64,000 nt of DNA from Minisyncoccota bacterium. GTDB taxonomy: Bacteria > Patescibacteriota > Minisyncoccia > Phycocordibacterales > Zambryskibacteraceae. Below are positions 7,027 through 21,975 of the stretch, piece by piece. A program made the translations under genes and the position numbers. The notes beneath the pieces are model-generated. The model did not search any database and was not told the DNA's origin. It saw only the letters and a program-made list of their open reading frames with translations. How positions within the stretch are numbered: position 1 is the first letter of the stretch; each line of letters starts with the position of its first letter. Location: NCBI GenBank assembly GCA_020059045.1, contig JAGVCW010000021.1, positions 27,821-91,820 of the forward strand, in the 5' to 3' direction.

Positions 7027-7208
7027 TAGAGAAATAACGAACGAAGTGAGTATATTTCTCATCATCCCTCCCCACTTTCACTGTTGATATTAAAAGAATT
7101 ACTTAACACTGAATGGCCGATTTTAGCTAAAGTTATTTATTAATGTCGTTAGTGAAAGTGGGGAGGGATCACGATTGTTTCTAACTCGCTTCGCTCATAA
7201 GAAAAAAC
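7027..7208 (+). repeat. Intergenic palindromic element, family B, copy 1
   Basis: Starts AACGAACGAAGTGAGTA after the rpsJ stop. Contains an internal 20 bp perfect inverted repeat (CATCCCTCCCCACTTTCACT / AGTGAAAGTGGGGAGGGATC). Ends CTAACTCGCTTCGCTCATAAGAAAAAAC directly before the rplC GTG. Confidence 0.7.
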
Positions 7209-7817
7209 GTGAAATTTATCCTCGCAAAAAAGAATAGAATGTCAGAAGTCTTTACTGAGAGTGGTTTGGTAATTCCTGTTACTATTCTTTCTGCTACTCC
7301 TATGGTGGTAACTCAGATGAAAGATGAGTCGACCGACGGGTACAAAGCTGTACAAGTAGGATTTGGTACACGCAGAGAAAAGAGAATAAACAAGGCGGTA
7401 AAAGGGCATACCAAGGAGCTTGGCAATTTTCTAAAGCTAAAAGAATTTCGCCTCAAGGATGATACATTTGTCCGCGGTGACAAGATAGATGTTTCTGTCT
7501 TTACTGCAGGAGATGTGGTTGAAGTCTCAGCCATTTCTAAGGGTAAAGGTTTCCAAGGTGTCGTGAAGCGCCACGGATTTGCCGGTGGTCCACGAAGTCA
7601 TGGGCAGAAACACTCAGAGCGTGAGCCAGGATCTATCGGCGGAGGATTGCGTACACATGTTCCGAAAGGTATGCGCATGGCAGGGCGAATGGGTGGCGAT
7701 CGTATAACCGTAAGGAATCTTAAAGTTGTCGAGGTTAATCCTACAGAGAATATTATTTTAGTTTCTGGCGCGGTGCCGGGGAGAAGAGGAACGATTGTCG
7801 AAATCAGAGGTAAATAA
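7209..7817 (+). CDS. rplC: Ribosomal protein L3 (GTG start)
   Basis: MKFILAKKNRMSEVF follows the MKGLIGKKVGMTQIF pattern. GKGFQGVVKRHGF and GGDRITVRNLKVV motifs present. Confidence 0.9.
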   Translation: MKFILAKKNRMSEVFTESGLVIPVTILSATPMVVTQMKDESTDGYKAVQVGFGTRREKRINKAVKGHTKELGNFLKLKEFRLKDDTFVRGDKIDVSVFTAGDVVEVSAISKGKGFQGVVKRHGFAGGPRSHGQKHSEREPGSIGGGLRTHVPKGMRMAGRMGGDRITVRNLKVVEVNPTENIILVSGAVPGRRGTIVEIRGK

Positions 7818-7888
7818 GTTGTAGATGTTCTAAATGTTATATATGTCTGACAATTACAACAACTAGAACAATTACAACAATTAGAACC
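7818..7888 (+). repeat. Intergenic hairpin element, family A, copy 1
   Basis: GTTGTAGATGTTCTAAATGTT...TGTCTGACAAT...ACAACAACTAGAACAATTACAACA. The arms around a TGTCWGACA core are reverse complements. Confidence 0.65.
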
Positions 7889-8659
7889 ATGGACACAACA
7901 GTTTATAACCAAAAAGGTGATTCAGTAGGGAAGATTAAGATTCCTGAATCAGTTTTCGGCGTGAAGTGGAATTCTGACATGGTTCACCAAGTTGTGACGT
8001 CCATGACATCTAGTGCGCGCAGAAACACGGCTCATACAAAGACTCGTGGGGAAGTACGGGGAGGAGGCAAGAAGCCTTGGAAGCAGAAGGGTACAGGACA
8101 GGCTCGTCACGGCTCGACTCGTTCACCAATATGGGTAGGAGGAGGTGTGGCACACGGTCCAAGAAACGATAAGAATTATGATCGCAAGGTGAATCGCAAA
8201 ATGAAGACCAAGGCTCTGTTTGCTATACTTTCTAGAAAGCTAAGTGATGGAGAAATAATTTTTATAGATGCGATTACAATGGGAGAAGCGAAGACAAAGA
8301 ATGCAATCAATATTATTTCAAATTTGAGAAAAATTGAGGGTTTCGATAAGATCTTTAATAAAAAGAAAAACAGTGCTCTCATTACTCTTGGCGAGAAAGA
8401 CGATTCTATAACAAGAAGTTTTAAAAACATAGGGAACGTGAGTGTCGATGAAATTCGTAATATAAACCCAGTTACACTTTTAAATTACAAAGCTCTCATC
8501 ATTTTAAATCCAGAAGCGTCTCTTCGATTACTTGAATCAAGGCTTAAGCAGAAAGCTACAGGTGATGCAGAAGGAGTGATAAAGAAAAAGTTTACAGCTA
8601 AAAAGAAAGGAGCTACAACAAAGAAAAAAGTAGTAGCTGCAAAGCCAAAGTCTTTATAA
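7889..8659 (+). CDS. rplD: Ribosomal protein L4 with a Lys-rich C-terminal tail
   Basis: RGGGKKPWKQKGTGQARHGSTRSPIWVGGGVAHGP motif. Confidence 0.9.
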   Translation: MDTTVYNQKGDSVGKIKIPESVFGVKWNSDMVHQVVTSMTSSARRNTAHTKTRGEVRGGGKKPWKQKGTGQARHGSTRSPIWVGGGVAHGPRNDKNYDRKVNRKMKTKALFAILSRKLSDGEIIFIDAITMGEAKTKNAINIISNLRKIEGFDKIFNKKKNSALITLGEKDDSITRSFKNIGNVSVDEIRNINPVTLLNYKALIILNPEASLRLLESRLKQKATGDAEGVIKKKFTAKKKGATTKKKVVAAKPKSL

Positions 8660-8669
8660 CAACTCATTT

Positions 8670-9050
8670 ATGGCCCTATTTTCAAAAAAACCCAAAGAAA
8701 AAGTTAAGAAAGACTCTCCAAAGAGTGTTTCACCAGAAGGACCTGTCGCATCAATCGAAACGATGGGTGGTACATCTTTTGCCCATATTCTCTTGCAGCC
8801 ACGTATTACGGAGAAAGCATCTCTCAAGGCAGAGAGCAATAATGTTTATGTCTTTGAAGTAAGCCCTCGTGCGTCAAAAAGTGACATAAGGCAGGCAGTG
8901 AAAGAAATTTATAAAGTGTCTCCAGAAAAAGTTTCTGTCGCACGAATCCCAAGTAAAAGTATTGTGGTTCGTGGTAAGCAAGGTGTGCGATCAGGTGGCA
9001 AGAAAGCCTATGTGTACCTGAAGAAGGGAGAGAAGATAGAGGTAATTTAG
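8670..9050 (+). CDS. rplW: Ribosomal protein L23
   Basis: ILLQPRITEKAS...YVFEVSPRASKSDIRQAVKEIYKV. Confidence 0.85.
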   Translation: MALFSKKPKEKVKKDSPKSVSPEGPVASIETMGGTSFAHILLQPRITEKASLKAESNNVYVFEVSPRASKSDIRQAVKEIYKVSPEKVSVARIPSKSIVVRGKQGVRSGGKKAYVYLKKGEKIEVI

Positions 9051-9225
9051 AAATTCAACGAACGAAGTGAGTATGAATTACTTAACCCCAACAAATTTTA
9101 TAGATACACAATTACCCAATTATTCTTGTGTATTTAATAACCACGAGTTATTATCCTTGGGCAATTTCTCAACGATAAAATTTGAGGGGGTCATGATTTT
9201 CTAATCGCTCTGCTCAAGAAAATCT
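9051..9225 (+). repeat. Intergenic palindromic element, family B, copy 2
   Basis: Starts AACGAACGAAGTGAGTATG. Internal inverted repeat CCCCAACAAATTTT / AAAATTTGAGGGGG. Ends CTAATCGCTCTGCTCAAGAAAATCT directly before the rplB ATG. Confidence 0.65.
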
Positions 9226-10065
9226 ATGAAACATTACAAACCAACAACCAAATCGCGAAGACAGATGACCGGTATAGACTACGGGAAAGTTTTGACCGCG
9301 AAAGATCCTTTGAAAAGTCTTACTCATGGAACTAAGCGTGATGTAGGCCGCAACCACCATGGTCGTGTTACAACACGTCACAAGGGAGGTGGGCACAAGC
9401 GTCTTTTCAGAGACATTGATTTTACATACAACAAATTTGATATTCCATTCAAAGTTTTAACAGTAGAATACGATCCAAACAGAACTGGTTTCATTGGCAT
9501 TGTAGTCTACAAGGATGGAGAAAAGAGATATGTCTTACTCCACAAAGGAGCGCGTGTTGGTGATACCTATATAGTTTCAGCTAAGGCTCCAGAGACAGTG
9601 GGCAACCGCCTGCCACTTGGCAAAATCACAGTGGGTACTTTCGTGTACAACGTAGAAGTTAAACCTCGTGGAGGTGCAAGGCTTGCAAGAAGCGCAGGTA
9701 ACTACATAGAAGTTGTTGCAAAGGATGCAGGCTACGTGGATCTTAAAATGCCATCTACAGAAGTAAGAAAAGTTTTAGAGACTTGCTGGGCGACAATCGG
9801 TGAAGTATCAAACGATGAGAACAGACTAGTAAATATCGGAAAAGCTGGAAGAAGTCGCTGGCTTGGTATAAGGCCTACTGTTCGTGGTTCTGCTATGAAC
9901 CCAGTAGATCATCCACACGGTGGAGGAGAGGGTCGTTCAGGACGCGGACGACGTCGAGCAGTGAGTGCATTTGGCAAACCAACAGGCAAGGGGCAGAAGT
10001 CTCGTACTCCAAAGAAATATTCAAACAAATTTATTGTTCGTCGCAGAAAAGTAGGAAAGAAGTAG
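9226..10065 (+). CDS. rplB: Ribosomal protein L2
   Basis: GRNHHGRVTTRHKGGGHKR...MNPVDHPHGGGEGR. Confidence 0.95.
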   Translation: MKHYKPTTKSRRQMTGIDYGKVLTAKDPLKSLTHGTKRDVGRNHHGRVTTRHKGGGHKRLFRDIDFTYNKFDIPFKVLTVEYDPNRTGFIGIVVYKDGEKRYVLLHKGARVGDTYIVSAKAPETVGNRLPLGKITVGTFVYNVEVKPRGGARLARSAGNYIEVVAKDAGYVDLKMPSTEVRKVLETCWATIGEVSNDENRLVNIGKAGRSRWLGIRPTVRGSAMNPVDHPHGGGEGRSGRGRRRAVSAFGKPTGKGQKSRTPKKYSNKFIVRRRKVGKK

Positions 10066-10095
10066 GATGATAAAGAGTAACCTACGACCGACAAC

Positions 10096-10114
10096 ACTAC
10101 TGAGTGGAAGCCGA
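10096..10114. repeat. GTGGAAGCCGAGCTTCCA(C) hairpin, copy 1 (second copy at 19098)
   Basis: 18-nt exact palindromic hairpin. It sits after the rplB stop and again after the rplE stop, in both cases at an operon interruption point. Confidence 0.55.
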
Positions 10115-10146
10115 GCTTCCAAAAATGTCTGTATTTCTTGCATAGC

Positions 10147-10175
10147 AGTGTAAATAAAAAAGCCCCGCATGTTTA
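10147..10175 (-). terminator. Rho-independent terminator for the minus-strand MYG1-like gene
   Basis: AGCCCCATAAACATGCGGGGCT followed by TTTTTT when read on the minus strand. Confidence 0.55.
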
Positions 10176-10186
10176 TGGGGCTACGG

Positions 10187-11155
10187 TTATACTGTATCAA
10201 GCACAGCTTGTATCTCTGCGGCCAGTGCATTGGCTTCAGCCGCGTCTCTACTCTCATTTTCCTCAAGTTGAGCAGAGTCAACTGGTACTTCTCCAGGCAG
10301 AAGTGCAAGTTCAGCAAGTCGCAAAGCACCCTCTCTACTCTCGGCTACGATTAGGTATCGGTTTTGGTGGCAAAACACGGCATCTCCTACCCCGGTGATT
10401 TCCTGAAGTTCAAGACCTCTCATACCTGCCCACTCTCTTGGTAACAAGCGAGGCGAAGTTGTATCAGTAGCTCTGTGCCAGCGTTTCACTGTCTGTACGA
10501 GCCAGCCGACCCTTTTGGGGTACACGACGAGGACTATTTCTGGGAAGTTTCTACTTACGTAGTGATCCCAACGGCATGAGTCATCAAGGAGTAAAACCTG
10601 TGGGCTTAAGTGCTTCTCTACAGCTCTCTTGACCACCTCTTCTCCTCGAATCTCTTCTTTTGCGCGGAAGATTGCACCACTTATGTTTGCTCGTGCAAAC
10701 GCAAGAGCAATATCCCAGTCACTTGGCTTAAATGTAGCTACTGCACTTGAAATGCTGTATGGCCGGATTTCACCAGCTTTGTATCTTACCAGAGTATACC
10801 TGTTGTCTGCCGCATCTATGGGTATAACCATGTGCCTCTCAATTTCTTCAGCTATCCGAGTGTCTTGAGCAATTCGCAGTCCGAAATGTTTCCATACAAG
10901 ACCGAAGGCAGCGTATGGAACACCATTTGCTCGTCTACCAGCACCTCCTTGCATATGGTGATCGAAGTCTAGAGTTTCTGGGTTGTACACTCCTCCTACA
11001 TCAATACGTACATTGCTTTCAGCTATTACTCTTGGATCGCGGCTACGCACCACAAGAGCTTCCATGTATTCCGGAAGCAATTGTAAGGCCGCGATCGCGT
11101 ACACCTCGTCTGCATGGATGGGTCCGTCGTGGGTCACAATTTGCACAGACAACAC
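10187..11155 (-). CDS. MYG1/UPF0160-family metal-dependent hydrolase-like protein
   Basis: N-terminal VTHDGPIHADEV matches the GTHxGxFHxDE signature. IDVGGVYNPETLDFDHHMQ matches the DVGG...FDHHQ signature. Length 322 aa. Intermediate GC, antisense to the ribosomal operon. Confidence 0.7.
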   Translation of the reverse strand: MLSVQIVTHDGPIHADEVYAIAALQLLPEYMEALVVRSRDPRVIAESNVRIDVGGVYNPETLDFDHHMQGGAGRRANGVPYAAFGLVWKHFGLRIAQDTRIAEEIERHMVIPIDAADNRYTLVRYKAGEIRPYSISSAVATFKPSDWDIALAFARANISGAIFRAKEEIRGEEVVKRAVEKHLSPQVLLLDDSCRWDHYVSRNFPEIVLVVYPKRVGWLVQTVKRWHRATDTTSPRLLPREWAGMRGLELQEITGVGDAVFCHQNRYLIVAESREGALRLAELALLPGEVPVDSAQLEENESRDAAEANALAAEIQAVLDTV

Positions 11156-11368
11156 CTCAAAATGGGAGTGAAATGCTTCTATAACAAAGGGCAGTACAAA
11201 ATACAGAGTACATATTTTTAGAAAATAGTCAAGATTTGCTAGATTTGCAATAAGTCTATGAGTTTATGGGTATTAGTTATTTTCTCACAATATAAGTGCT
11301 TATTTACTCCCAAAATATGGCCTAAGATAGCCCTTTTTGGGGATTTATGTAATTTAAATCAAAAAGTT

Positions 11369-11397
11369 CTTGACAAATAAATTGTATATGTTATACT
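11369..11397 (+). promoter_or_regulatory. Sigma70-like promoter, TTGACA-16-TATACT
   Basis: CTTGACAAATAAATTGTATATGTTATACTA upstream of the high-GC ORF. Confidence 0.45.
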
Positions 11398-11479
11398 ATA
11401 GGTAGTAGTAAGTAGTACATTTCAGTTGCAGTTCCCCGTTCAAGGTAGTCCACTCAGCACACCTTATGGAGGTATTACC

Positions 11480-12199
11480 ATGGCTAGCAAGAAGAAGCAG
11501 CAGGTAGCAACGAGCCCGGTTCCCAGCATGCAGGCCGCGGTTGCCACGATGGCGGAAGAGGCTCCCGCCGAGAGCAGGCAGTTCTCTTCGAGCCAGCCGA
11601 AGTGGTCCCCGACTCAGTTCATTGAGACCCTGGGGAAGATCAAGGAAGAACTCCCGGCCGCCGTGTCGAACTTCAAGATCGTGAAGAAGATCGTGGGTCT
11701 CGAGATGGACGGCAAGGATGAGATGGCCTTTCGGCAGATGATTCAGCTCGCCGGGGCCGTTGCTACCAAAGCATCCCAGAAGGCGGACGCGGAAGACCCA
11801 TCAAAGGTGTATCTGGATGCCAGGAAGGTCCAGGCTGCGCTCACCGCATGTGAGCGTGCCAATTCCAATCTGGCACGCACCTTCGACAGGTACATCGGGA
11901 ACTGGCGGAAGCGGGCTGACACCATGATGTCGAACGCAAGGCGCAAGGACCCGGACGTGATCGAGCGCGAGAGTGACACAATCGCGGACAACATGGAGGC
12001 ACTGGATGAGGCACTTGAAGGAAAGAAGCCTCGTCAAGAGGTCCTCGAGATCTACAACAGGACCTTCACCCATCTTCGCGAGCTCTCAAAGGAAGCAACG
12101 GCGCTTGCTACTGAAGCTTCGAGGAGAGAGCAGATCGAAACGATCGGCTCACTCGGGGACGACATCCTCGACTCTCTCGCGGAACTCGACAGCATCTAA
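11480..12199 (+). CDS. High-GC hypothetical alpha-helical protein
   Basis: Probable start MASKKKQQ at 11480. About 60% GC with strong GC3 bias, very different from the flanking r-protein genes. No recognised domain. Confidence 0.55.
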   Translation: MASKKKQQVATSPVPSMQAAVATMAEEAPAESRQFSSSQPKWSPTQFIETLGKIKEELPAAVSNFKIVKKIVGLEMDGKDEMAFRQMIQLAGAVATKASQKADAEDPSKVYLDARKVQAALTACERANSNLARTFDRYIGNWRKRADTMMSNARRKDPDVIERESDTIADNMEALDEALEGKKPRQEVLEIYNRTFTHLRELSKEATALATEASRREQIETIGSLGDDILDSLAELDSI

Positions 12200-12217
12200 G
12201 TGCTGCGAGCAGTAGTA

Positions 12218-12258
12218 CCCCACGAAAAACCCCCAAGGTATCGTGGGGTTTTTCTTTT
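12218..12258 (+). terminator. Rho-independent terminator
   Basis: CCCCACGA-loop-TCGTGGGG followed by TTTTTCTTTT. Confidence 0.6.
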
Positions 12259-12472
12259 ATTGCAATTGCGGAGAATACCATGACAGCTAGGCTGCATGGG
12301 ATGAATCCGCAAATACATACTATATGTCGGCGGAGCCGACTCCTCTTGCAACAAAGTTTGCCCTGATGCCTCGTCCTGCTACTCGCCGAGGCTTTGCGAG
12401 GGAATAGCTTACTGCGATTATAGGACGAGGCCAATTTTATTAAGATAATAATCTTTCCTGTATAATTTATAT

Positions 12473-13441
12473 ATGGAATACAAAACTATTATTTTGCCTA
12501 CTAGGCCTCAGGTGGATACTGTTATTTCTATATTCGTATTAAAGCACTTTGGTGAAAGTTTCTTCCCTGGTATTAAGACTGCTAGCTATGAGTTCATGTC
12601 CAACTTACCAGCTGGTGCGAGCGAAGAGAGCTTGGCAGAGGAAGGAAGGCTCCCAATAGATATTGGTGGTGGACGATTTGATCATCACAACAAAGAGGAG
12701 AAAACCACTGTTCTAAATCTTTTGACTAGCTTTCTTGCTCAAGGGAATAATCCTGCTTTAATAAAACTCAAGAAGTTTGTAGAAAGAGATGATTTTTATG
12801 GTAAAGGAATAATATCCTCTGACCCCCTTGATCGTGCTTTCGGTTTGCCCGGGCTTATTGCTTGTCTTAATAAAAAGTATTCAAGTAACCCAGCGAAAGT
12901 GCTGGATATAATTCTTCCAGTTGTTGATGCGTACTACGAAGAAGAAGAGAAGAGGGCAATAGGAATGCCTCTTGAACTTAAGGAGAAAATAGCAAATGGT
13001 AAAGCTAGAGTATTTAATACAGAGCAGAGAGGCAGAAAACTTAAATGCATTTTCATAGAAAGCGATAACATAAGTCTACCGGGTTTTCTTCGATCTAAGA
13101 TTGGAGGGGAGCACGATGTGATTGCAATAAGGCTATCGTCTGGACACACAAATATTCTTACGAGTCTCAAAAATACAGTTGATTTGCGTTCACTCGCAGT
13201 GCTTATTCGCTTACAAGAAGCCGAGGCGCGAGGTGTGAAGCTAGATGGAGTGCCGGAAGATTTAGCAGTACCGGGTAAAATCGATGAAGTACTTAATTGG
13301 TACTACGATACAGCTACTAACTCTTTACTAAATGGTGGTCCTAATCCAAGTGAGACCGACCCAACGGGAATAGCATCTTTCGAATTTGAAAAAATAATGG
13401 AAATAGGGCTCTCTGAGAAACTCTGGTCTCCATCACGATAA
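12473..13441 (+). CDS. Degenerate MYG1-like paralog, or DHH-motif protein
   Basis: 322 aa, the same length as the minus-strand MYG1-like protein. Retains IDIGGGRFDHHNKEE, comparable to IDVGGVY..FDHH. The N-terminal His/Asp signature is replaced by TRPQVDTVIS. Low GC. Confidence 0.5.
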   Translation: MEYKTIILPTRPQVDTVISIFVLKHFGESFFPGIKTASYEFMSNLPAGASEESLAEEGRLPIDIGGGRFDHHNKEEKTTVLNLLTSFLAQGNNPALIKLKKFVERDDFYGKGIISSDPLDRAFGLPGLIACLNKKYSSNPAKVLDIILPVVDAYYEEEEKRAIGMPLELKEKIANGKARVFNTEQRGRKLKCIFIESDNISLPGFLRSKIGGEHDVIAIRLSSGHTNILTSLKNTVDLRSLAVLIRLQEAEARGVKLDGVPEDLAVPGKIDEVLNWYYDTATNSLLNGGPNPSETDPTGIASFEFEKIMEIGLSEKLWSPSR

Positions 13442-13469
13442 GCCAAATACCCTTTATATTAGCCACGTA

Positions 13470-13520
13470 ATGGTCTATAAAAATCCTTGACTTTTATAGA
13501 CCATTATGCTATTATTATAC
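13470..13520 (+). promoter_or_regulatory. Promoter with an embedded perfect palindrome (operator-like)
   Basis: TGGTCTATAAAAATCCTTGACTTTTATAGACCA, then TTGACT-17-TATTAT. The palindrome arms flank the -35 box. Confidence 0.4.
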
Positions 13521-13564
13521 AAGAACAGCAGTTTCACACACCGACCCTTTCACAAGGAGTTTGC

Positions 13565-14155
13565 ATGGTAAAAAGCAAGGAAGTCGTCGACCCCGCATTT
13601 GTCGGAGAAGTGGAAGCGGCGCTCGTGTACCTCACGGTGCCCGGCAATCTGAAGTATCTTATACCCGGGTGGGTAAAAGAGGCGGACTTCTCGAATACTC
13701 CAAAGTCCGAGCGCCAGATGGCCCCACGATCCGATAAGTTGTTCCAAGTTGCACAAGCGAGGATGGATGGGGTGCTCGGGGATCTTGCCGGCGCTGGTTT
13801 CCTCCCCTCTGAAGTGTTTTATCTGAATCGGGATGGTGGCGCGCGGCGGGTTCGTATCACATGCAAGCGCTTTGGCGCACCGCTGACACTCGATCAGGTG
13901 CAGTCTCTCATTCCCCTCACTACCGAGCGGATATGGGATGTGATGGCTCATCGGACGGCTGCTACCAGGAACATTCCATGGGAGCACATTTCGATCAATG
14001 CCGGACGCCCCGATCATGCTCCAGAAGGGGGATTCGAAGCGGTTCGCGTGGTCGAAGGTCGAGTCTCGGTAGTTTCCCTTCTCAACACGGACGAGCTGCG
14101 GAAGGCGTCTGAGTCCATCATCGGCCTCCTCGAATCGCTGCAGATAACACGCTAA
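13565..14155 (+). CDS. High-GC hypothetical protein
   Basis: Start MVKSKEV. GC3-rich. The plus frame is more protein-like than the overlapping minus-frame ORF. Confidence 0.5.
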   Translation: MVKSKEVVDPAFVGEVEAALVYLTVPGNLKYLIPGWVKEADFSNTPKSERQMAPRSDKLFQVAQARMDGVLGDLAGAGFLPSEVFYLNRDGGARRVRITCKRFGAPLTLDQVQSLIPLTTERIWDVMAHRTAATRNIPWEHISINAGRPDHAPEGGFEAVRVVEGRVSVVSLLNTDELRKASESIIGLLESLQITR

Positions 14156-14184
14156 TCCTCCTTGCGATAACAGGGGGGTCAACG

Positions 14185-14215
14185 AGCCAGACAGAAATGT
14201 CTGGCTCTTTTCTAT
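14185..14215 (+). terminator. Rho-independent terminator
   Basis: GCCAGACA-gaaa-TGTCTGGC followed by TCTTTTCT. Confidence 0.6.
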
Positions 14216-14219
14216 TTAA

Positions 14220-14246
14220 TTGACAACAAGTGTCTATTTCTATAAT
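14220..14246 (+). promoter_or_regulatory. Sigma70-like promoter that restarts the operon before rpsS
   Basis: TTGACA at 14220-14225, a 15 nt spacer, and TATAAT at 14241-14246. Confidence 0.45.
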
Positions 14247-14349
14247 ATCTTGAGAAGCTCATCCGAGCTTTTTGTATTCTAATTTTAGTTTTAGTAGCTG
14301 GGCAGGAGTAACCCTTCGACGAGCTCAGGGTAAAAATCTAAAGATTTTT

Positions 14350-14709
14350 GTGACACGATCATCAAAAAAAGGCCCCTATGTATATGAGCGCCTTCTGAAG
14401 AAAATTGAAGGCAAAAAGCCCGAGCAAGCTGGGGTTATTAAGACATGGGCAAGGGACAGCCAGATCGCTCCCGAGATGGTTGGCTACACATTTGGAGTAC
14501 ATAATGGTAAGGATCATATTGAAGTTTTTGTAACTGAAGACATGGTGGGTCATAGACTCGGCGAATTCTCACCTACACGTAAGTTCGTTAAACATGGCGG
14601 TAAGATGCAGAAAGAACTTGAGCAGAAGAAGAAAGAATCAGAAATAGCATCTGCTCAAGCGGCCAAAGCCTCTGTAAGTGCAGGAGCAAATACAGTACCG
14701 GCGAAGTAG
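14350..14709 (+). CDS. rpsS: Ribosomal protein S19 (probable GTG start)
   Basis: [13 protein letters not shown]...[31 protein letters not shown]. The ORF track opens at 14272, but the S19 N-terminus aligns from the GTG at 14350. Confidence 0.85.
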
Positions 14710-14813
14710 CTTAAATGTTCTAAGTGTTGTATGTGTTATACATGTCATACAACTTCAACAATTCAAACAAATAAAACAACTAGAACATCTATAACAATTA
14801 AAACCGCGAATTT
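14710..14813 (+). repeat. Intergenic hairpin element, family A, copy 2
   Basis: AAATGTTCTAAGTGTTGTATG...CATACAACTTCAACAATT...AACAACTAGAACATCTATAACA. Confidence 0.6.
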
Positions 14814-15248: not shown

Positions 15249-15929
15249 ATGAGTCATACAGTTCACCCATTTTCACACAGACTAGGTATCATAAGAGATT
15301 GGAGATCTCGATGGTTTGGTACAAAGAAGAATTACAAAGAATTTCTTCGCGGTGATCTTTTGATACGAGCATTTCTAGAAGGAAAGCTTCGTGGTATGTA
15401 CGTAAGTACTATTGAAATCGAGCGTAATGAAAAAGTTCTGCGCATTATAGTTGAGACTTCTCGACCCGGTATGATCATTGGTCGTAGTGGCGATGGAGCA
15501 GTCCGGCTCAAAGACCAGATCGTAGCCATGCTTCGCCGAGAGAAGGTGGGTCGTGCTAACGAAGAGGTTCGTCTCGATATTAAGGAGGTTAGATCTCCAG
15601 AATCAAATGCTCACATTGTTTCTCAGATGATAGGAGAGGGACTTGAGAAAAGACTTCCATACAGAAGAGTTGTGAAGCAAATGGTAGAAAAGGTTATGGC
15701 CAATCGTGATGTGAAAGGGGTAAAGGTAACTGTTGCAGGAAGACTCGGGGGCGCAAGTATTGCACGATCAGAGACAAGAAAGCTTGGTAGAATTCCTCTT
15801 CAGACATTTCGTGCTGATGTAGAGTTCGCACGGCACGAAGCTCGTCTCCCATATGGCAATCTGGGTATAAAAGTTTGGATTTACAAAGGTGACATTTTCT
15901 CCACCAAGGTTGGTGGAGAAAAGTCATAA
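15249..15929 (+). CDS. rpsC: Ribosomal protein S3
   Basis: HPFSHRLGIIRDWRSRWF...IIGRSGDG (KH domain). Confidence 0.9.
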   Translation: MSHTVHPFSHRLGIIRDWRSRWFGTKKNYKEFLRGDLLIRAFLEGKLRGMYVSTIEIERNEKVLRIIVETSRPGMIIGRSGDGAVRLKDQIVAMLRREKVGRANEEVRLDIKEVRSPESNAHIVSQMIGEGLEKRLPYRRVVKQMVEKVMANRDVKGVKVTVAGRLGGASIARSETRKLGRIPLQTFRADVEFARHEARLPYGNLGIKVWIYKGDIFSTKVGGEKS

Positions 15930-15947
15930 TTGTTCTACTTGTTATAG

Positions 15948-16325
15948 TTGTTCTATATGTCAGAGAGATTTCAAGGATATAGGTTTGAAAAATTGGAAGT
16001 TTGGCAGGTGGGAATGCGTATAGTAAGTAAGGTATATTCAATTACGAAAAGGTTTCCTAAAGACGAGACCTACGCCCTGTCTGACCAGTTAAAAAGAGCA
16101 GCCACTTCGATAGTTTTAAACTTGGCAGAAGGCTCAGGACAGCCAACAAAAAAGTTATTCTCTCTTTATATTGAACGTGCCAAGTCCTCAACACTTGAAT
16201 GTGTGGCTTGTACAAAAATTGCTGTTCAGGAAAAACTTGTAGAACCTGATGAGGTTAAATCTTTGGAAGAGCTACTTGCGGAAGAGTATTTTAAACTTAT
16301 TGCGCTAGCAAAATCTATGAGGTAA
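15948..16325 (+). CDS. Four-helix-bundle protein (23S rRNA intervening-sequence protein / Avd-like family)
   Basis: FPKDETYALSDQLKRAATSIVLNLAEGSG is the hallmark of this family. About 120 aa. Inserted between rpsC and rplP. Confidence 0.7.
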   Translation: MFYMSERFQGYRFEKLEVWQVGMRIVSKVYSITKRFPKDETYALSDQLKRAATSIVLNLAEGSGQPTKKLFSLYIERAKSSTLECVACTKIAVQEKLVEPDEVKSLEELLAEEYFKLIALAKSMR

Positions 16326-16396
16326 GATCTTCCTACTCTAGCTTGTAACCTATCTAACACCTATAACAACTAGAACATATATAACACTTACAACCA
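16326..16396 (+). repeat. Intergenic hairpin element, family A, copy 3
   Basis: ...ACCTATAACAACTAGAACATATATAACACTTACAACC before the rplP ATG. Confidence 0.55.
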
Positions 16397-16813: not shown

Positions 16814-16903
16814 ATAGCGCTTGTTGTAAATGATGTATATGTTCTAAGTGTCTGACAAATACAACATCTACAACATTTAAAAACATTTACAACAAAATAT
16901 AGT
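16814..16903 (+). repeat. Intergenic hairpin element, family A, copy 4
   Basis: TTGTTGTAAATGATGTATATGTTCTAAGTGTCTGACAAATACAACATCTACAACATTTAAAAACA. Confidence 0.6.
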
Positions 16904-17095
16904 ATGTCTAAGGAACTCAAAGAAAAAAACGAAAAGGAATTAAGTAAAATGCTTGCGGATAATCAAGAGAATTTACGCTCTTTTCGATTTGGTATCGCAG
17001 GTTCGAAGAATCGCAATGTGAAAGAGGGACGGGCAATTCGCAAAGACATTGCAAGGATCCAAACTGAGATGAGTGCTCGCAAGAAGGCTAAATAG
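16904..17095 (+). CDS. rpmC: Ribosomal protein L29
   Basis: 63 aa. KELKEKNEKELSKMLADNQENLRSFRF. Confidence 0.85.
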   Translation: MSKELKEKNEKELSKMLADNQENLRSFRFGIAGSKNRNVKEGRAIRKDIARIQTEMSARKKAK

Positions 17096-17142
17096 ACAAG
17101 AGTCTGAAAATATGTAGTATAAACACACTAACTTATAGAGAG

Positions 17143-17382
17143 ATGAGTGCAATATCCACAAAAAATAAAGAATTTACAGGTACAGTAGTGTCAGACAAAA
17201 TGAAAGACACGATTGTTGTTAGTGTGGAGAGGTTTACGAAGCACCCTCGTTACGGCAAGTACATCCGAAGCCGTCGTAAGTTCAAGGTTCACGATGTAGG
17301 AAATACGAAAAAGATTGGAGAAAAAGTAGTATTCATTGCTTGTCGCCCAATTTCAAAAGATAAGAGATTCAGAGTTATTTAA
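17143..17382 (+). CDS. rpsQ: Ribosomal protein S17
   Basis: FTGTVVSDKMKDTIVVSVERFTKHPRYGKYIRSRRKFKVHD. Confidence 0.9.
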   Translation: MSAISTKNKEFTGTVVSDKMKDTIVVSVERFTKHPRYGKYIRSRRKFKVHDVGNTKKIGEKVVFIACRPISKDKRFRVI

Positions 17383-17558
17383 GGAGCTTGGCGACTATAA
17401 ATAACCTGACCCCCCATCATTTTTAACAATGAAACCTGAAACATTAAAAAAAGATATTGAAAAACATTTCTATTATAGTATCCGATGAAACATATTTTAA
17501 AAATGATGAGGGATGGTGATTTTCAAAAACTCACTATCGCTCGTTAAGAAAATCAACC
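17383..17558 (+). repeat. Intergenic palindromic element, family B, copy 3
   Basis: Internal inverted repeat CCCCCCATCATTTTTAA / TTAAAAATGATGAGGGATGG. Ends CTCACTATCGCTCGTTAAGAAAATCAACC directly before the rplN ATG. Confidence 0.65.
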
Positions 17559-17930
17559 ATGATCCAACCCCGCTCAATAGTAAAAATAGCAGACAACTCA
17601 GGCGCCAAAATCGGTAGAGTTTTCAAGGTGCTTGGTGGGTCTAAGAAGAGATACGCACGTATTGGTGATGTGGTGGTATTGTCGGTTCAGGTAGCACAAC
17701 CTAGAAAGTCAGTGAAAAAGAAAGACATTTTGTACGCGGTGGTAGCACGTCAGAGAACACCATTTCGCAGACAAGATGGTTCCTACATTCGTTTCGATGA
17801 GAATGCAGTGATAATTGTTGATAAAGCAAAGCACGAGCCTATCGCAGGACGTGTTTTCGGACCGATCCCAAGAGAGCTTGGCGAGATGGGATTCCAGCAG
17901 GTAATATCATTAGCACAAGAGGTAGTTTAG
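17559..17930 (+). CDS. rplN: Ribosomal protein L14
   Basis: MIQPRSIVKIADNSGAKIGRVFKVLGGSKKRYARIGDVVV. Confidence 0.95.
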   Translation: MIQPRSIVKIADNSGAKIGRVFKVLGGSKKRYARIGDVVVLSVQVAQPRKSVKKKDILYAVVARQRTPFRRQDGSYIRFDENAVIIVDKAKHEPIAGRVFGPIPRELGEMGFQQVISLAQEVV

Positions 17931-18149
17931 AAAATCAAGGAGTGAAACGACTATGATTTACTTAACCCCACCTAAATTTTGCATCGAAGACAGAAGCGCA
18001 GTGCGCGGCCGAGTAGGCCAAGCGGTCATGGGCGAAGCGCTGCGCCTCGAAAGGTTTGTGACTATTCGTCACTCGCACTTCTTGTGGTAATGTAAAAGCA
18101 AAATTTAGGCGGGGTCATGATTTTCCAATCGCTCCGCTCAAAAAAATCA
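17931..18149 (+). repeat. Intergenic palindromic element, family B, copy 4
   Basis: Near-perfect 29 bp inverted repeat (ATGATTTACTTAACCCCACCTAAATTTTGC / GCAAAATTTAGGCGGGGTCATGATTTTCC) around a GC-rich hairpin. Ends CAATCGCTCCGCTCAAAAAAATCA directly before the rplX ATG. Confidence 0.7.
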
Positions 18150-18455
18150 ATGAAAATAAAAAGGGATGACAACGTAATAGTGATAGGAGGCAAGGACAGA
18201 GGCAAAACTGGTAAAGTTTTGCGTGCTTTTCCTCGTGAATCGAAAGTTGTCATCTCGGGCGTAAACTTGAAAAAACTTCATAAGCGTCCCACAAAATCCG
18301 GGCAGAAGGGACAAGTCGTTGAGCAAGCTGCACCCATACATGTATCAAATGTTATGATTGTGGATCCAAAATCTGGGAAGAGAACAAGAGTTCTACGCAA
18401 GATGGAAGGAGACAAGAAAGTCAGAGTAGCAAAAAGTAGCGGCACCACGCTGTAA
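18150..18455 (+). CDS. rplX: Ribosomal protein L24
   Basis: MKIKRDDNVIVIGGKDRGKTGKV (KOW motif). Start set at the conserved leader/ATG junction. The ORF track begins at 18117. Confidence 0.85.
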   Translation: MKIKRDDNVIVIGGKDRGKTGKVLRAFPRESKVVISGVNLKKLHKRPTKSGQKGQVVEQAAPIHVSNVMIVDPKSGKRTRVLRKMEGDKKVRVAKSSGTTL

Positions 18456-18532
18456 AGTTATAAATGTTGTAATTGTTGTAGTGTCAGACATTTATAACAT
18501 CTACAACATTTAGAACAATTTCAACATACAAA
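18456..18532 (+). repeat. Intergenic hairpin element, family A, copy 5
   Basis: ATAAATGTTGTAATTGTTGTAGTGTCAGACATTTATAACATCTACAACATTTAGAACA. Confidence 0.6.
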
Positions 18533-19081
18533 ATGCAAAGCATAAAAGAAAAAACTCAAAAAACGTTTTCATCACTTAAGGCCACTCGTGGTTATAAAAA
18601 TCCCATGCAATCTCCACGTATTGTCAAAGTTGTTGTGAGTGTAGGAACGGGCTCATTTAAGGATGCGAAGAAAAAGGAACTTGCCCTGGATCGTCTTACG
18701 AAGATTACCGGCCAGCGCCCATCAGTACGCGGTGCAAAGCAGTCAATTGCCGCATTTAAAGTCCGACAGGGAGACCCGGTAGGACTTGCAGTCACACTTC
18801 GTGGCAAGAGAATGTACGATTTTCTAGATAAGTTAATCCATGTGGCCCTACCTCGTACCAAGGACTTCAGAGGAGTATCTTCTAAAGCTATTGATAAGAT
18901 GGGCAATTACACTCTAGGTATTAAGGAGCACACTATTTTCCCAGAGACAGCAGACGAGGAACTTAAAGACGTTTTTGGGCTAGCAATAACAATAGTTACG
19001 ACCGCAAGAACGAAGGAGGAGACCAAAGAATTTCTAGATTATCTAAGTTTCCCTTTCAAAAAAACAGAAGAGAAGAAGTAA
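18533..19081 (+). CDS. rplE: Ribosomal protein L5
   Basis: NPMQSPRIVKVVVSVGTG...AFKVRQGDPVGLAVTLRGKRMYDFLDKLI. Confidence 0.9.
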   Translation: MQSIKEKTQKTFSSLKATRGYKNPMQSPRIVKVVVSVGTGSFKDAKKKELALDRLTKITGQRPSVRGAKQSIAAFKVRQGDPVGLAVTLRGKRMYDFLDKLIHVALPRTKDFRGVSSKAIDKMGNYTLGIKEHTIFPETADEELKDVFGLAITIVTTARTKEETKEFLDYLSFPFKKTEEKK

Positions 19082-19094
19082 ATCCGTGGAAGCG

Positions 19095-19116
19095 AAGCGT
19101 GGAAGCCGAGCTTCCA
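19095..19116. repeat. GTGGAAGCCGAGCTTCCAC hairpin, copy 2
   Basis: CGTGGAAGCCGAGCTTCCACGG directly after the rplE stop. Same 18-mer as at 10096. Confidence 0.55.
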
Positions 19117-19184
19117 CGGAACATACTGTGTTCAGAATCTTTAAATGCTTGTAAACTTCATATAAATTTGTTTCTATAATAGAT

Positions 19185-19391
19185 ATGACAGAAGAATCAC
19201 TAAACTTAAACGAGACAAAGGAGAAGAGCGCGTTTTCCATGGGCGATCATTCAGATTTTATTGCAAGAGAGCTTGACCAAGTGAATAGGGAGTTACTCGA
19301 TGTAAGTTTAGACATACCAGATGGGGAGGTATCAGGTTTGGAAGAAGTGTATGATGCGATGATAAGGGATCTAAAAATCGAAAATAAATAA
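19185..19391 (+). CDS. Small acidic hypothetical protein
   Basis: 68 aa ORF with TATAAT located 10 nt upstream. Lies inside the rplE-rpsN insertion. Confidence 0.35.
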   Translation: MTEESLNLNETKEKSAFSMGDHSDFIARELDQVNRELLDVSLDIPDGEVSGLEEVYDAMIRDLKIENK

Positions 19392-19410
19392 TTCAAGTTC
19401 TCACTTTCGT

Positions 19411-19752
19411 ATGAACAAATTTTTATCTTTAGTAACGCGTATTCTGGGTGAGCTAGAATTTTCGCAAGAAAACAAAGAAAAAGTTGCATATGATCTCAAT
19501 CGCCTAATTATGACAAAGGTTGTCATAGCACTTCTTGATGAGGCCCCAGAGAATGTTCAAACTGAAGTTGAAAAACTTTTAAGTGCTGGTGAAACACTTG
19601 AAGTTGCAAATATCCTCAAGTCTACATTTACGACTGAAAGATTCGAAGAAGTAAGCCTTCATATTACTCGAGATGTGGTTCACAAATACTTAAGCGAATT
19701 GTTTGCAAAAACTCACAAGGAAAACAAAGAGAAACTTGTCGCTTCACTCTAA
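19411..19752 (+). CDS. Hypothetical protein
   Basis: 113 aa helical ORF in the same insertion. Confidence 0.4.
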   Translation: MNKFLSLVTRILGELEFSQENKEKVAYDLNRLIMTKVVIALLDEAPENVQTEVEKLLSAGETLEVANILKSTFTTERFEEVSLHITRDVVHKYLSELFAKTHKENKEKLVASL

Positions 19753-19759
19753 TATTTGT

Positions 19760-20340
19760 GCTGGGCTCTAATAGCACAGTACTTTTGTATAAAAACAAAC
19801 CCGCTCCTTGGTGAGGGCGGGCGATAGTGGGAAGAAAACTTCCAATGGTTTGGAAACTGCATGAAACCGGGTACTTCCTCCCTTTGTCTAGTCAATGGCG
19901 ATTGGGCGCCTATGACATCCTCTTGGCTGTAAACCTCGTAACTCACCATGAGTTACGGCAGGCTAACGCCAACTAAGCTGAGGACTTCGACTGGGCTGTC
20001 TCTGCACGTGGTCCCGAATGAGACGCCTAGTGAGCGAATGACCCGAACGCAGACTACCCGGTTTCACACTTTGTAATGAACTTATATCTTGCACTCTCTT
20101 TCGAGAGATGATTTCGTACCCTGGGGCGGCGAGCGGGCCGAAGCGCCGTCACGACCCCAGGGACTTCCTCGATATTTAACCTCTGATGCCGAGTACCGCA
20201 TCGGAGGCGATCCCCGTTAGGACGTAAGCGAATGCACCGGTTTAGGGCACATCACTGTATCCGAGCCCGCATGGGGGAGCTTGTGAGCTTATGTATATTA
20301 TAGCATGTACACGTTATTTGTCAAGGAGTTTCTCATTATC
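19760..20340 (+). ncRNA. Large GC-rich structured non-coding RNA. The core (about 19800-20070) is a possible reduced RNase P RNA.
   Basis: No ORF, and GC is well above the surroundings. A 10-11 bp long-range pairing joins GAAACCGGGUA (about 19862) to UACCCGGUUUC (about 20053), like the RNase P P4 helix. The segments GGCAGGCUAACGCC and GAAUGACCCGAACGCAGACUACCCGGUUU resemble the bacterial RNase P regions GGCAGG..UAACGCC and GAAUGAC..ACAGAAxCCGGCUUA. Additional strong hairpins are present, including CCCTGGGGCGGCG...CGCCGTCACGACCCCAGGG. Confidence 0.4.
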
Positions 20341-20592
20341 TTTTCTGTGACACATGAAATATGGCTAAAACTAAGGCTTATTTGAATATCACTTTAAAGT
20401 AGAGGGAAATTTGTTGGCAAGTTCTTGAAATTATCCGCTTAACCCTTATTTTATTGACTTTATACGGCTCAATTGCTAAGCTGTTGCAAAGCTTTTGGAA
20501 GCTTTTTTCTTTACTTAATCGCTTCATTCGTCAATATTCTTCCTTTTGAGGGCTTTCGCTCATGCGAGGTCGCTAGAGGATAAACAATATTT

Positions 20593-20778
20593 GTGGCCAA
20601 GAAATCAGTTATAGCAAGATCAGTTAAAAAGCCTAAATTCTCGACTCGCATCGTGAGGCGTTGTTTCCGTTGTGGTCGAAAGCGTGGCTATATGCAAGAT
20701 TTTGATCTATGTAGAATATGTTTTCGCGAATTTGCAAATGAAGGCAAAATCCCGGGCGTTAAGAAATCAAGTTGGTAA
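20593..20778 (+). CDS. rpsN: Ribosomal protein S14, type Z zinc-ribbon (GTG start)
   Basis: 61 aa. [25 protein letters not shown] with two C-x2-C pairs. Confidence 0.9.
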
Positions 20779-20881
20779 TAAAAGATTGTTCTAGATGTTG
20801 TAATTGATATACATGTTATAAATGTCTGACAAATACAACAACTAAAACATTTTGAAACAAATATAACATCTCAAACATTAC
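20779..20881 (+). repeat. Intergenic hairpin element, family A, copy 6
   Basis: TGTTCTAGATGTTGTAATTGATATACATGTTATAAATGTCTGACAAATACAACAACTAAAACA. Confidence 0.6.
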
Positions 20882-21265
20882 ATGGATCCCATCGCTGACA
20901 TGATAATAAGAATCAAGAATGCAGGAGAATCCCGCAAGGATACAGTGGCTTTTCCATATTCAAATTTGAAAGCAAGCATCTGCAAAACTCTTCTAGATAG
21001 TGGATACATAAAATCTCTTGTTATAAAAGGGAAGATTGCCAAATCAATAGAAGTCGGACTTATTTACAACGGCAAGTTCCCAAAGATCCAAGGTGTGAAG
21101 AGACTTTCGAAGCCTTCTCGTCGTCTATACAAGGCCTCAAGTGATCTACGGCCGGTTAAGAGAGGGTATGGATCTCTCATCATGTCTACTCCGAAGGGAA
21201 TAATGGTAGGAGAGCATGCCCGTAAGTCTAAAGTCGGTGGTGAGGCATTATTTGAAATATGGTAA
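20882..21265 (+). CDS. rpsH: Ribosomal protein S8
   Basis: MDPIADMIIRIKNAG...GEALFEIW. Confidence 0.9.
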   Translation: MDPIADMIIRIKNAGESRKDTVAFPYSNLKASICKTLLDSGYIKSLVIKGKIAKSIEVGLIYNGKFPKIQGVKRLSKPSRRLYKASSDLRPVKRGYGSLIMSTPKGIMVGEHARKSKVGGEALFEIW

Positions 21266-21353
21266 TGGCTTTGTCTAAATTTTACGAACGAAGTGAAATA
21301 AAATTTAGTAACAAAACATTAACTCACTATCGTTCGTTAAGAAAATCAACCAC
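21266..21353 (+). repeat. Intergenic palindromic element, family B, copy 5
   Basis: 88 bp, about 97% identical to copy 6. TTACGAACGAAGTGAAATAAAATTTAGT...CTCACTATCGTTCGTTAAGAAAATCAACCAC-ATG. Confidence 0.75.
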
Positions 21354-21887
21354 ATGAGCAGAATCGGAAAAGGAAAAATAGATATCCCAGAGAAAACTGA
21401 AGTTATTCTTCTTGCAGACACTGTCGTGGTAAAGGGGCCATTAGGTGAATTGTCTCACAAAGTTCACTCAGATATAGGTATTGAGATTGCTTCCGGAAGC
21501 GTAACATTTGTTCCCAAAGTTAATACTCTTGAAGCAAATGCTCTCTGGGGCACGACGTCTTCTCACTTGTCCAATATGATAGATGGAGTGAACAAACCTT
21601 TTGAAAAGAAATTAGTTTTAGAAGGCATTGGATATAAGGTAGAGGTAAAGGGAGATAAGATTCATCTTGCACTAGGCTTTTCTCATCCTGTAGAAGTTTT
21701 AATACCAAAAGGCTTGAATGTAAAAGTTGAGAAAAATGCCGTAACGATATCTGGCATTAGCAAGGACGATGTCGGGAGTTTCACAGCACGTCTGCGTGAC
21801 TTGAAGAAGCCGGAACCTTACAAAGGCAAAGGATTCAAATATTTTGGCGAAGTGATCAAGATTAAGCAGGGTAAAAAGTCAGTATAA
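21354..21887 (+). CDS. rplF: Ribosomal protein L6
   Basis: MSRIGKGKIDIPEKTEV...KPEPYKGKGFKY. Confidence 0.9.
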   Translation: MSRIGKGKIDIPEKTEVILLADTVVVKGPLGELSHKVHSDIGIEIASGSVTFVPKVNTLEANALWGTTSSHLSNMIDGVNKPFEKKLVLEGIGYKVEVKGDKIHLALGFSHPVEVLIPKGLNVKVEKNAVTISGISKDDVGSFTARLRDLKKPEPYKGKGFKYFGEVIKIKQGKKSV

Positions 21888-21975
21888 TGGCTTTGTCTAA
21901 ATTTTATGAACGAAGTGAAATAAAATTTAGTAACAAAACATTAACTCACTATCGCTCGTTAAGAAAATCAACCAC
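21888..21975 (+). repeat. Intergenic palindromic element, family B, copy 6
   Basis: Near-identical to the copy at 21266-21353. Ends CTCACTATCGCTCGTTAAGAAAATCAACCAC-ATG (rplR). Confidence 0.75.

Follow-up and report, generated by a model that had tools for sequence, protein, structure and literature searches.

Hairpin elements resembling palindromic insertion sequences fill stop-to-start junctions of a ribosomal-protein gene cluster in Parcubacteria

The ribosomal-protein gene cluster that runs from S10 (6640–7026) to SecY (23617–24888) in a 64-kb stretch of DNA from a Minisyncoccota bacterium (contig JAGVCW010000021.1; the whole stretch is called the window below) has nearly all of its gene junctions enlarged. 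Six junctions (S10-L3, L23-L2, S17-L14, L14-L24, S8-L6 and L6-L18) hold spacers of one kind, which we call Family B (7027–7208, 9051–9225, 17383–17558, 17931–18150, 21266–21353 and 21888–21975), and at least seven others are occupied by a second family, Family A, with arms of 9-nt periodicity. L30 is missing from the cluster, and genes of the window are preceded by no recognisable Shine-Dalgarno (SD)-like sequence, both of which fit the Parcubacteria/Patescibacteria of the candidate phyla radiation (CPR). The anti-SD motif has been reported to be lacking in about half of the Parcubacteria (PMC9297842). We give a little better than an even chance to the reading that Family B is a palindromic insertion element of composite, non-coding build, similar to miniature inverted-repeat transposable elements (MITEs), repetitive extragenic palindromic (REP) doublets forming hairpins (REPINs) and bacterial interspersed mosaic elements (BIMEs), that sits in A-rich and very short stop-to-start junctions between co-directional, for the most part translation-related genes of Parcubacteria. 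It looks like selfish DNA, derived in part from a homing-endonuclease cassette, rather than a conserved regulatory leader.

The elements are built in this order: left flank a, apical mini-hairpin e, b, P3, c, e′, leader d and start codon. The outer arm a is native left flank and usually contains the upstream stop codon, the inner arm b is an inverted, complementary copy of a, and e has the form A(G/C)-GA-NN-loop-NN-GA-(C/G)U with tandem G-A pairs; e′ is the reverse complement of the e motif, and d reads GAAAAUCA(A)CC or a variant. Three hairpins result: HP1, in which a pairs with b and e forms the cap; P3, a palindrome that is long and variable; and HP2, in which c pairs with d and the cap is e′. 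It follows from this order that each element is an inverted doublet of one hairpin unit of about 40 nt, present as HP1 and HP2 around P3. The three helices abut, with linkers of 0–1 nt, and in variant copies the start codon itself is base-paired. Three local hairpins are the minimum-energy fold in 12 of 21 full-length elements, including three of the four long copies in the window, and long-range e:e′ pairing forms the fold of five. The e apex reads C-GAA-G or C-GTA-G in over half of the copies, and in two loci (L105 and L131; L001–L147 denote loci or genomes compared with the window, W1–W6 the window copies) it is GCGAAGC; C-GNA-G/GCGAAGC is a stable DNA mini-hairpin motif (PMC13037366, PMC3201870).

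All six window copies lie on the plus strand. In W1 (S10-L3) the outer arm of HP1 (7023–7064; 48.9 bits with our covariance model) overlaps the S10 stop codon TGA (7024–7026), and its apex, AC-GA-AC-GAA-GU-GA-GU, combines tandem G-A pairs with a C-GAA-G loop. It is followed by a P3 of the beta type, found in all four long window copies, with arms TCCCTCCCCAC...GTGGGGAGGGA (7065–7168) folding into a stem of about 29 bp, 20 pairs of it perfect, and by an HP2 (7169–7212) with the HP1 apex inverted, where CACG:CGUG pairing places the L3 start codon GUG (7209–7211) within the stem. W2 (L23-L2) comprises an HP1 (9041–9085; 53.8 bits) with the L23 stop TAG in its 5′ arm, a P3 with arms CCCCAACAAATTTTAT...ATAAAATTTGAGGGGG and two inner hairpins (9086–9190), and an HP2 (9191–9229) in which UCAUGAUUUUC pairs with GAAAAUC(U)AUGA and includes the L2 start AUG (9226–9228) in the pairing. 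W3 (S17-L14) has an HP1 (17369–17409; 41.8 bits) whose outer arm GUUAUUUA consists of the final S17 codons and the stop TAA, with the complementary inner arm UAAAUAAC, a P3 with arms CCCCCCATCATTTTTAA...TTAAAAATGATGAGGGATGG (17410–17516), and an HP2 (17515–17558) in which GGUGAUUUUC pairs with GAAAAUCA(A)CC, ending one base before the L14 AUG at 17559. W4 (L14-L24) has the L14 stop TAG in the 5′ arm of its HP1 (17925–17965; 52.5 bits), a P3 (17966–18114) with a G+C-rich inner module common to L082, L119, L007 and L078, and an HP2 (18115–18153) in which UCAUGAUUUU, containing an in-frame ATG at 18117, pairs with AAAAAUC(A)AUGA, including the L24 AUG read at 18151. The remaining two are short forms that have neither P3 nor the 5′ arm of HP2: W5 (S8-L6, 21266–21353; 43.2 bits) consists of HP1 (21273–21309), a linker, and the inverted apical motif with leader (21321–21353), and W6 (L6-L18, 21888–21975; 43.7 bits) of HP1 (21895–21931) and the inverted motif with leader (21943–21975).

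The G+C-rich module shared by beta-type P3 interiors (17985–18095 in the window, and the same four loci) contains two small hairpins with complementary loops, GAAUA and UAUUC, and stems that vary compensatorily between loci; it repeats the inverted-doublet design at a smaller scale. A mini-ORF (open reading frame) in c (AUG AUU UUC UAA, three codons, with an SD-like G-run) was considered and rejected as it is not conserved: its start is ACG or GUG in some copies, type I copies have no stop, and it is out of frame with L14. GAAAAUC was also considered as a possible SD sequence peculiar to this lineage; by eye, the motif is lacking from other genes in the window.

Family B is a real repeat family. 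The original prediction, made from the letters of the window, had described six spacers of one shared architecture, and this was borne out by profile searches that detect the 3′ module in all six and the 5′ module in four (at 7026, 9046, 17373 and 17926). The rest of the window gave a single further match, a weak and possible solo HP1-type hairpin on the minus strand (40578–40617; E=0.036 in the profile search, 24.4 bits and E=0.21 with the covariance model), which lies outside the operon, downstream of a minus-strand ORF and ahead of a terminator-like hairpin. The motifs quoted for the two ends hold for part of the family. The 29-nt 3′ motif matches with at most three mismatches at 17530–17558, 21323–21351 and 21945–21973, where the chance expectation is 0, and the 15-nt 5′ motif is exact at 7036 and 9057 and has two mismatches at 21283, but the remaining copies carry variants (AAGGAGnnnnGCGAC on the 5′ side, AATCGCTCnGCTCAAGAAAATC on the 3′ side). 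The leader, said to be fused to the start codon, is directly so at 17559 alone; 2 extra bases intervene in two copies and 1–3 other bases in the variant copies. Other parts of the description stood up well: the internal inverted repeats are present as central stems of about 15–29 bp, with fold z-scores of –2.4 to –7.9 against shuffled sequence in the four long copies, and the two short forms, put at about 97% identity, are 98% identical over 95 nt from stop codon to ATGA. The repeat unit does bring its own A-rich leader before the start codon: the 32 nt upstream of L14 and of L18 are the same and those upstream of L6 differ by one base, whereas the native leaders of relatives differ among themselves.

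The 5′ and 3′ motifs were also said to be mutually complementary, pairing the stop region with the start region of each spacer. Complementarity exists at the level of the family, with an e:e′ duplex energy of –11.4 kcal/mol compared to –5.7 for shuffled sequence, but the long-range stem does not behave as a co-evolving helix. An element's own e′ pairs with its e no better than the e′ of other copies does (–11.4 kcal/mol in both cases; permutation p=0.47), and the two differences between the twin copies W5 and W6 are non-compensatory. The two ends are complementary because the HP1 unit recurs, inverted, as HP2; in keeping with this, minus-strand matches of the HP1 covariance model fall on HP2 in L146 and L131.

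Degenerate 3′ motifs, scanned once each against species-representative genomes and metagenome contigs (the metagenome sample thus being one chosen through the 3′ motif), yielded about 20 further distinct copies. All named hosts are Patescibacteria/Parcubacteria (Taylorbacteria, Paceibacterota, Minisyncoccia and GW2011_GWA2_49_9). As judged from N-terminal sequences, the downstream genes are nusG, nusA (three copies), ftsZ, obg, L3, L2, L14, L16 (two copies), L24, L6, S4, L34, a type II secretion F/PilC-like gene and several unknown genes, and the element thus extends beyond ribosomal-protein operons; copies in L022 and L122 have no downstream gene. The upstream ORF ends inside HP1 or at most 12 nt from it in 22 of 26 elements, and four copies have no upstream ORF. 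Two contigs of one metagenome (L114 and L081a) carry a common P3 and HP2 before different genes. We also observed upstream genes that end on stops supplied by the element (L119, L120, the S3-L16 copy of L081 at 1633–1753 on the minus strand, L083, L079 and L082). In such cases S17, S3 and others read into the element, for instance through GGA GCG TAG inside the apical loop, and therefore gain short element-encoded C-terminal extensions.

Comparison with relatives shows that the element is not conserved at orthologous positions. Those with readable operons (L14 protein at least 90% identical) have only about 70–74% DNA identity to the window, and most of them have junctions of 1–11 nt where the window has 88–220 nt. 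Such short junctions cover S17-L14, L14-L24, L23-L2, S8-L6 and L6-L18 (L131, L133–L139 and L004); for instance, S17-L14 is TAAACCATG in L131 and TGACCATG in L004, L23-L2 is TAGAAAATAAAATG in L131, and S3-L16 is TAAAAATCAACCATG in L004. The nearest relative (L001; L14 protein identical, DNA about 85% identical, but only 521 nt long) has a different 9-nt periodic hairpin family, with CTAGGCGTT units, at S17-L14 and L14-L24 (1–97 and 470–521). These findings support the earlier suggestion of a MITE-like module, one that is repeated, palindromic, near-identical within a genome and absent from the equivalent junctions of relatives. The apparent fusion to the start codon would then arise from native gaps of only a few bases and from the leader d that comes with the unit. 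In L131 we noted yet another periodic repeat (ACGAATA/ATTCGTA) that fills S10-L3, L3-L4 and L6-L18 (1725–1848, 2467–2517 and 13208–13246).

The flanks carry further traces. Of 24 copies, about 18 have a flank a that resembles d over 6–9 bp, and a short form in L139 stands between exact direct repeats of 9 bp, TAAAAACAA, but the repeat is lacking in about 6 of the 24, among them W3, L119, L078 and L120; its near-uniformity across copies may mean target preference or that it is part of the unit. The inner arms of the hairpins are copies of native host flanks. In L081b and L120 arm a is formed by the last S3 codons (encoding SKKQG and DKKG) and b complements them, and these same end codons occur in L004, where the junction is empty; in L138 the inner arm c complements the native start-codon region. 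Another palindromic MITE family in the relatives, with ends TCCCGTTAGAA...TTCTAACGGGA, is worth recording beside this one. It lies at the start codon in all three cases (L138 4547–4858, as the 3′ half of the spacer, L139 6438–6528 and L139 10373–10496, before L3, L2 and L24), each with an ATGAA duplication, by which the start codon is regenerated.

A possible origin of the P3 core is seen in loci where P3 contains a gene. In L083 (identical in sequence to L033) and, independently, in L146, an intact GIY-YIG endonuclease gene (PF01541) of about 87 amino acids lies within P3, co-oriented with the neighbouring genes. The cassette is bounded by ACCCTGTYAAAT...ATTTRACAGGGT, the 3′ repeat being formed by the last codons of the gene itself (YLTG-stop), and the same ends bound a GIY-YIG gene between yidD and yidC in L147 and one inside an interrupted intervening-sequence protein (IVP) gene in L143. 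They are likewise the arms of the ORF-less P3 in L118, L101, L105, L103, L125 and the second L083 copy. As they share terminal inverted repeats, we conclude that this alpha-type P3 is an ORF-less derivative of the GIY-YIG cassette, which makes it a candidate autonomous partner with the same ends for alpha-type P3 (L083, L146, L147 and L143); the TGATGA found in c is explained as the stop region of the cassette. No partner enzyme for the e/e′ ends was found in the loci examined. The window has a free-standing GIY-YIG gene of its own (41771–42013, minus strand), between smpB and the tmRNA gene (41241–41678). It is a paralogue just 44% identical to the P3-borne gene and the only GIY-YIG gene found in the window, and neither Family B modules nor alpha-type inverted repeats surround it.

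A similar picture emerges for Family A, whose spacers (7818–7888, 14707–14810, 15923–15961 plus 16344–16395, 16815–16903, 18456–18532 and 20780–20881) are hairpins with 9-nt periodic arms (GTTNTANNT/ANNTANAAC). The same arms flank a gene for the 23S rRNA IVP, a four-helix-bundle protein (PF05635; 15948–16325), which occupies the loop of a Family A hairpin at S3-L16, and the centres of Family A hairpins retain ATGTCAGA/ATGTCTGA, matching the start of that gene. From the shared arms and the retained gene starts, Family A looks like ORF-less copies of the IVP cassette. In L143 and L142 (1150–2115, in a hisH-hisF context that does not look like CPR) an IVP gene is flanked by inverted 9-nt periodic arms (GAGACTTAG) and split by the GIY-YIG cassette, so the two kinds of cassette nest in each other.

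These observations can be joined into a sequence of events, which we offer as a model. A short inverted-repeat element like W5 and W6 would enter a junction. With the flanks serving as template, its mini-hairpins would then be lengthened toward the inside, either by quasi-palindrome template switching or by fold-back synthesis. Endonuclease cassettes may then home into the middle of the element and later lose their gene, leaving P3, and transposition or gene conversion could carry copies of the element from one junction to another in the same genome. On the mRNA it would be carried as three abutting hairpins that loop the insertion out. Since the hairpins bury stop and start codons of essential genes they must be at least tolerated, and any effect on processing, stability or coupling would be secondary under this model.

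The most serious rival sees in the element a cis-acting RNA device, kept by selection, that serves translation where spacers are long: HP1 would lock the stop codon, HP2 the start codon, and P3 would loop the insert out, and a ribosome terminating in HP1 would melt it, upon which HP2 opens or re-initiation occurs, giving coupling or insulation without an SD sequence. The position of stop codons in or near HP1, the start codons paired with or abutted by HP2 in the copies folded, the abutting helices, the predominance of translation and transcription genes downstream, and the lack of visible SD signals in the window and of the anti-SD motif in about half of Parcubacteria all agree with it. So does covariation, a check that the original prediction had proposed. 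HP1 is strongly supported, with 84% of cells paired compared to 65% in shuffles (none of 500 reaching the observed value) and both sides changed in 14 of 16 pairs. HP2 is 93% paired, though only its outer pairs are informative because the core was fixed by the degenerate search pattern; pairing is nonetheless retained with other sequences in copies found independently of that pattern (L131, L138, L146, L004b and W1). However, an RNA helix under selection should show G-U far above A-C on the transcribed strand, and despite the strong covariation of HP1 the ratio G-U : A-C on the mRNA strand is 9:12 for HP1 and 4:13 for HP2. The minus strand folds equally well or better in 15 of 21 elements, and neither fold energy nor wobble pairs differ between the strands of the elements. 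Sequence statistics thus give no sign of selection on the mRNA strand; together with the flank-copied inner arms, the DNA mini-hairpin apex and the direct repeats around most copies, they point to an origin at the level of DNA. In addition, equivalent junctions in relatives lack the element or hold unrelated hairpin families, short forms do without HP2, four copies lack the upstream ORF and two the downstream one, and the near-perfect flank copies in inner arms favour templated synthesis over stepwise compensatory evolution. A secondary or selected role in coupling, insulation or RNase III processing could be accommodated, but the evidence does not favour it, and we regard the RNA device as the main explanation as unlikely.

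Several points nevertheless weigh against the insertion-element reading that we prefer. Strong HP1 covariation and a stop codon in the outer arm of most copies would also be expected from a selected RNA function, part of the invariance of HP2 is imposed by the search pattern, and the c-e′-d module is conserved across distinct genera and in every case adjoins the start codon of a housekeeping gene. Among near-identical genomes no filled/empty pair was found, and at 70–74% DNA identity gain is neither separable from loss nor datable. Target duplication is inconsistent, a resembling d in most copies and not in all. The window's own Family B copies have no transposase or endonuclease inside or beside them, and their beta-type P3, for which no ORF-bearing version was found in the loci compared, is tied to the GIY-YIG cassette by analogy only.

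Two further explanations, both of which we hold to be doubtful, start from the mRNA as well. One would have the elements domesticated as processing or stabiliser modules, in which RNase III cuts P3 and leaves HP1 to protect the 3′ end of the upstream message and HP2 as a 5′ hairpin of the downstream one. 23S rRNA intervening sequences are RNase III substrates, and the sister Family A hairpins share arms with the cassette of the 23S rRNA IVP. A duplex of about 20 bp, as RNase III requires, is present in W1, with its 20 perfect pairs, and roughly so in the other long copies (stems of about 15–29 bp overall), P3 accommodates any insert, an ORF included, and HP1 follows immediately after the stop codon. 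Short forms, however, have no P3 to be cut, HP2 would block the start codon once the mRNA is processed, and the lack of conservation in relatives counts here just as it does for the RNA device. The other, rated equally low, combines selfish origin and host use: HP1-P3-HP2 would be a host-adapted "loop-out" device that houses selfish hairpin cassettes (GIY-YIG, IVP) in the essential polycistronic mRNAs of SD-less Parcubacteria. Stop and start may then be held side by side at a helical junction, and terminating ribosomes may re-initiate across 90–230 nt. If true, translational coupling would here have a new mechanism, and rRNA intervening sequences a counterpart in mRNA.

Internal promoters, with the 5′ module (TAGAAA, about 18 nt, TATAAT-like) driving the downstream gene and the remainder serving as 5′ untranslated region, are very improbable and were rejected. 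In their favour, most copies have a TAT(A/G)AT-like hexamer at the start of inner arm b, the copies before nusA come straight after terminator-like hairpins, and the one before obg occupies the space between divergent genes. Against them, the HP1 sites score only 9/12, at noise level (32 such matches compared to 29.9 expected in shuffled sequence), whereas real promoters of the window are near-consensus TTGACA-16/17-TATAAT (11370, 13487, 14220, and 20324 on the minus strand). The two "boxes" also form a covarying hairpin whose sequences differ widely between copies, and the region is coding in L119, L120 and L081b.

Returning to the palindromic insertion element, we asked what it most resembles. 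By function and architecture its nearest known counterparts are REPINs/BIMEs and MITEs, to which it adds a core of homing-endonuclease origin. The REPINs and BIMEs of Proteobacteria (for REPINs see PMC3116915) are likewise inverted doublets of a palindromic unit with a spacer, able to form one long hairpin or two local ones, extragenic, within transcription units, present in several copies per genome, and mosaic and modular in build. Family B differs from REP in having no GTAG/CGTC tag (defined in PMC3733652) at the foot of the unit, GTAG occurring only in the apical loop (L119, L120 and L007). It differs from REPINs in being confined to stop-start junctions, with an HP1 outer arm of native coding sequence, a centre derived from a homing endonuclease, and a CPR host. 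No REP-associated tyrosine transposase (RAYT) was seen: none of the seven non-ribosomal ORFs of the operon, scanned against Pfam, is a transposase, and no search was made beyond the operon. As in MITEs, the terminal motifs e/e′ are inverted repeats, flanking direct repeats accompany most copies, equivalent junctions of related genomes lack the element, and ORF-bearing and ORF-less versions with the same ends exist, the last seen for P3. Family B departs from MITEs in that the flank is also duplicated in inverted form inside the element (b being the reverse complement of a), the direct repeat is not universal, and e/e′ have no known transposase partner.

The cassette itself recalls free-standing GIY-YIG homing-endonuclease cassettes, exemplified by the seg genes of phage T4: a small PF01541 ORF between conserved co-directional genes, in the same orientation, and present or absent between genomes. 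In contrast to these, ours has terminal inverted repeats of 11–12 bp, one of them made from its own last codons, leaves ORF-less palindromic derivatives and sits within another repeat, and its cleavage and homing activities are putative. The 23S rRNA intervening sequences, with or without an S23p/IVP ORF, similarly form a long hairpin, with an optional small ORF in its loop, inserted into a highly expressed transcript. Family A has exactly this build around the IVP gene, whereas Family B lies in mRNA spacers rather than rRNA and has no IVP gene, and its excision by RNase III is putative. Family B also shares a build of 5′ and 3′ modules around a variable middle with the BOX elements of Streptococcus pneumoniae (boxA-boxB(n)-boxC) and the Correia elements of Neisseria, which likewise form stable folds within transcripts and can provide signals for expression. 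It has no sequence relation to them, and they show neither a tie to stop-start junctions nor an endonuclease-derived core.

Other known classes were tried and set aside. Integron attC sites require R″/R′ core sites (RYYYAAC...GTTRRRY), of which by eye only chance partial matches are present (ATTCAAC in W2, and GTTAAGA, which fails at the last position); no integrase was found in the loci read, whose genes form a conserved essential operon. IS200/IS605 elements should have similar subterminal hairpins on the same strand at their two ends, and neither inverted repeats nor a duplication, but the end hairpins of Family B are inverted copies of each other. A known RNA family is likewise rejected, as Rfam 15 gave no relevant match at gathering scores or at E up to 5, only generic microRNA-hairpin noise. 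No account of such elements in Patescibacteria turned up in the literature searched.

The window holds other features of note. Between L5 and S14, a highly structured RNA of about 500 nt (19785–20292, minus strand; z=–5.1) is bracketed by a consensus promoter (20324–20297, TTGACA-16-TATAAT with TG) and a terminator. It has no Rfam match even at E=10 and contains GAGGAAGUCC, a sequence similar to the conserved RNase P RNA core; a divergent form of that RNA, or else a new non-coding one, may be encoded here. An insert of about 4.2 kb between L2 and S19 (10066–14270) carries a MYG1-like exonuclease gene (10187–11155, minus strand) and three ORFs without Pfam matches, two of them markedly richer in G+C. 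The near-consensus promoters at 11370, 13487 and 14220 serve the ORFs at 11426 and 13487 and the downstream S19, terminator-like hairpins lie at 12231 and 14184, and inserts are found at the same junction in L004, L131 and L139. At 48802–48876 and 61097–61186 (minus strand) ARAGORN reports a tRNA-Ile with anticodon TAT and a tRNA-Ser with anticodon ACT, both anticodons being unusual if correct. Finally, 9-nt periodic direct repeats of TCCACNCCN units at 31790–31906 presumably encode a tripeptide repeat.

The analysis defines a repeat family spread across Parcubacteria and traces its core, in the alpha type, to a GIY-YIG cassette whose last codons form one of the terminal repeats. Arms copied from the host flank hint at the templated building of palindromes. 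For annotation, the spacers, mini-ORFs and extended C-termini may mislead gene callers and searches for non-coding RNA. For the cell, they raise the question of how SD-less translation proceeds across 90–230 nt of stable structure that buries the start codon. More generally, CPR operons, even the most conserved ones in tiny genomes, can carry nested hairpin repeats and small cassettes, of endonuclease or four-helix-bundle type, at nearly all of their junctions.

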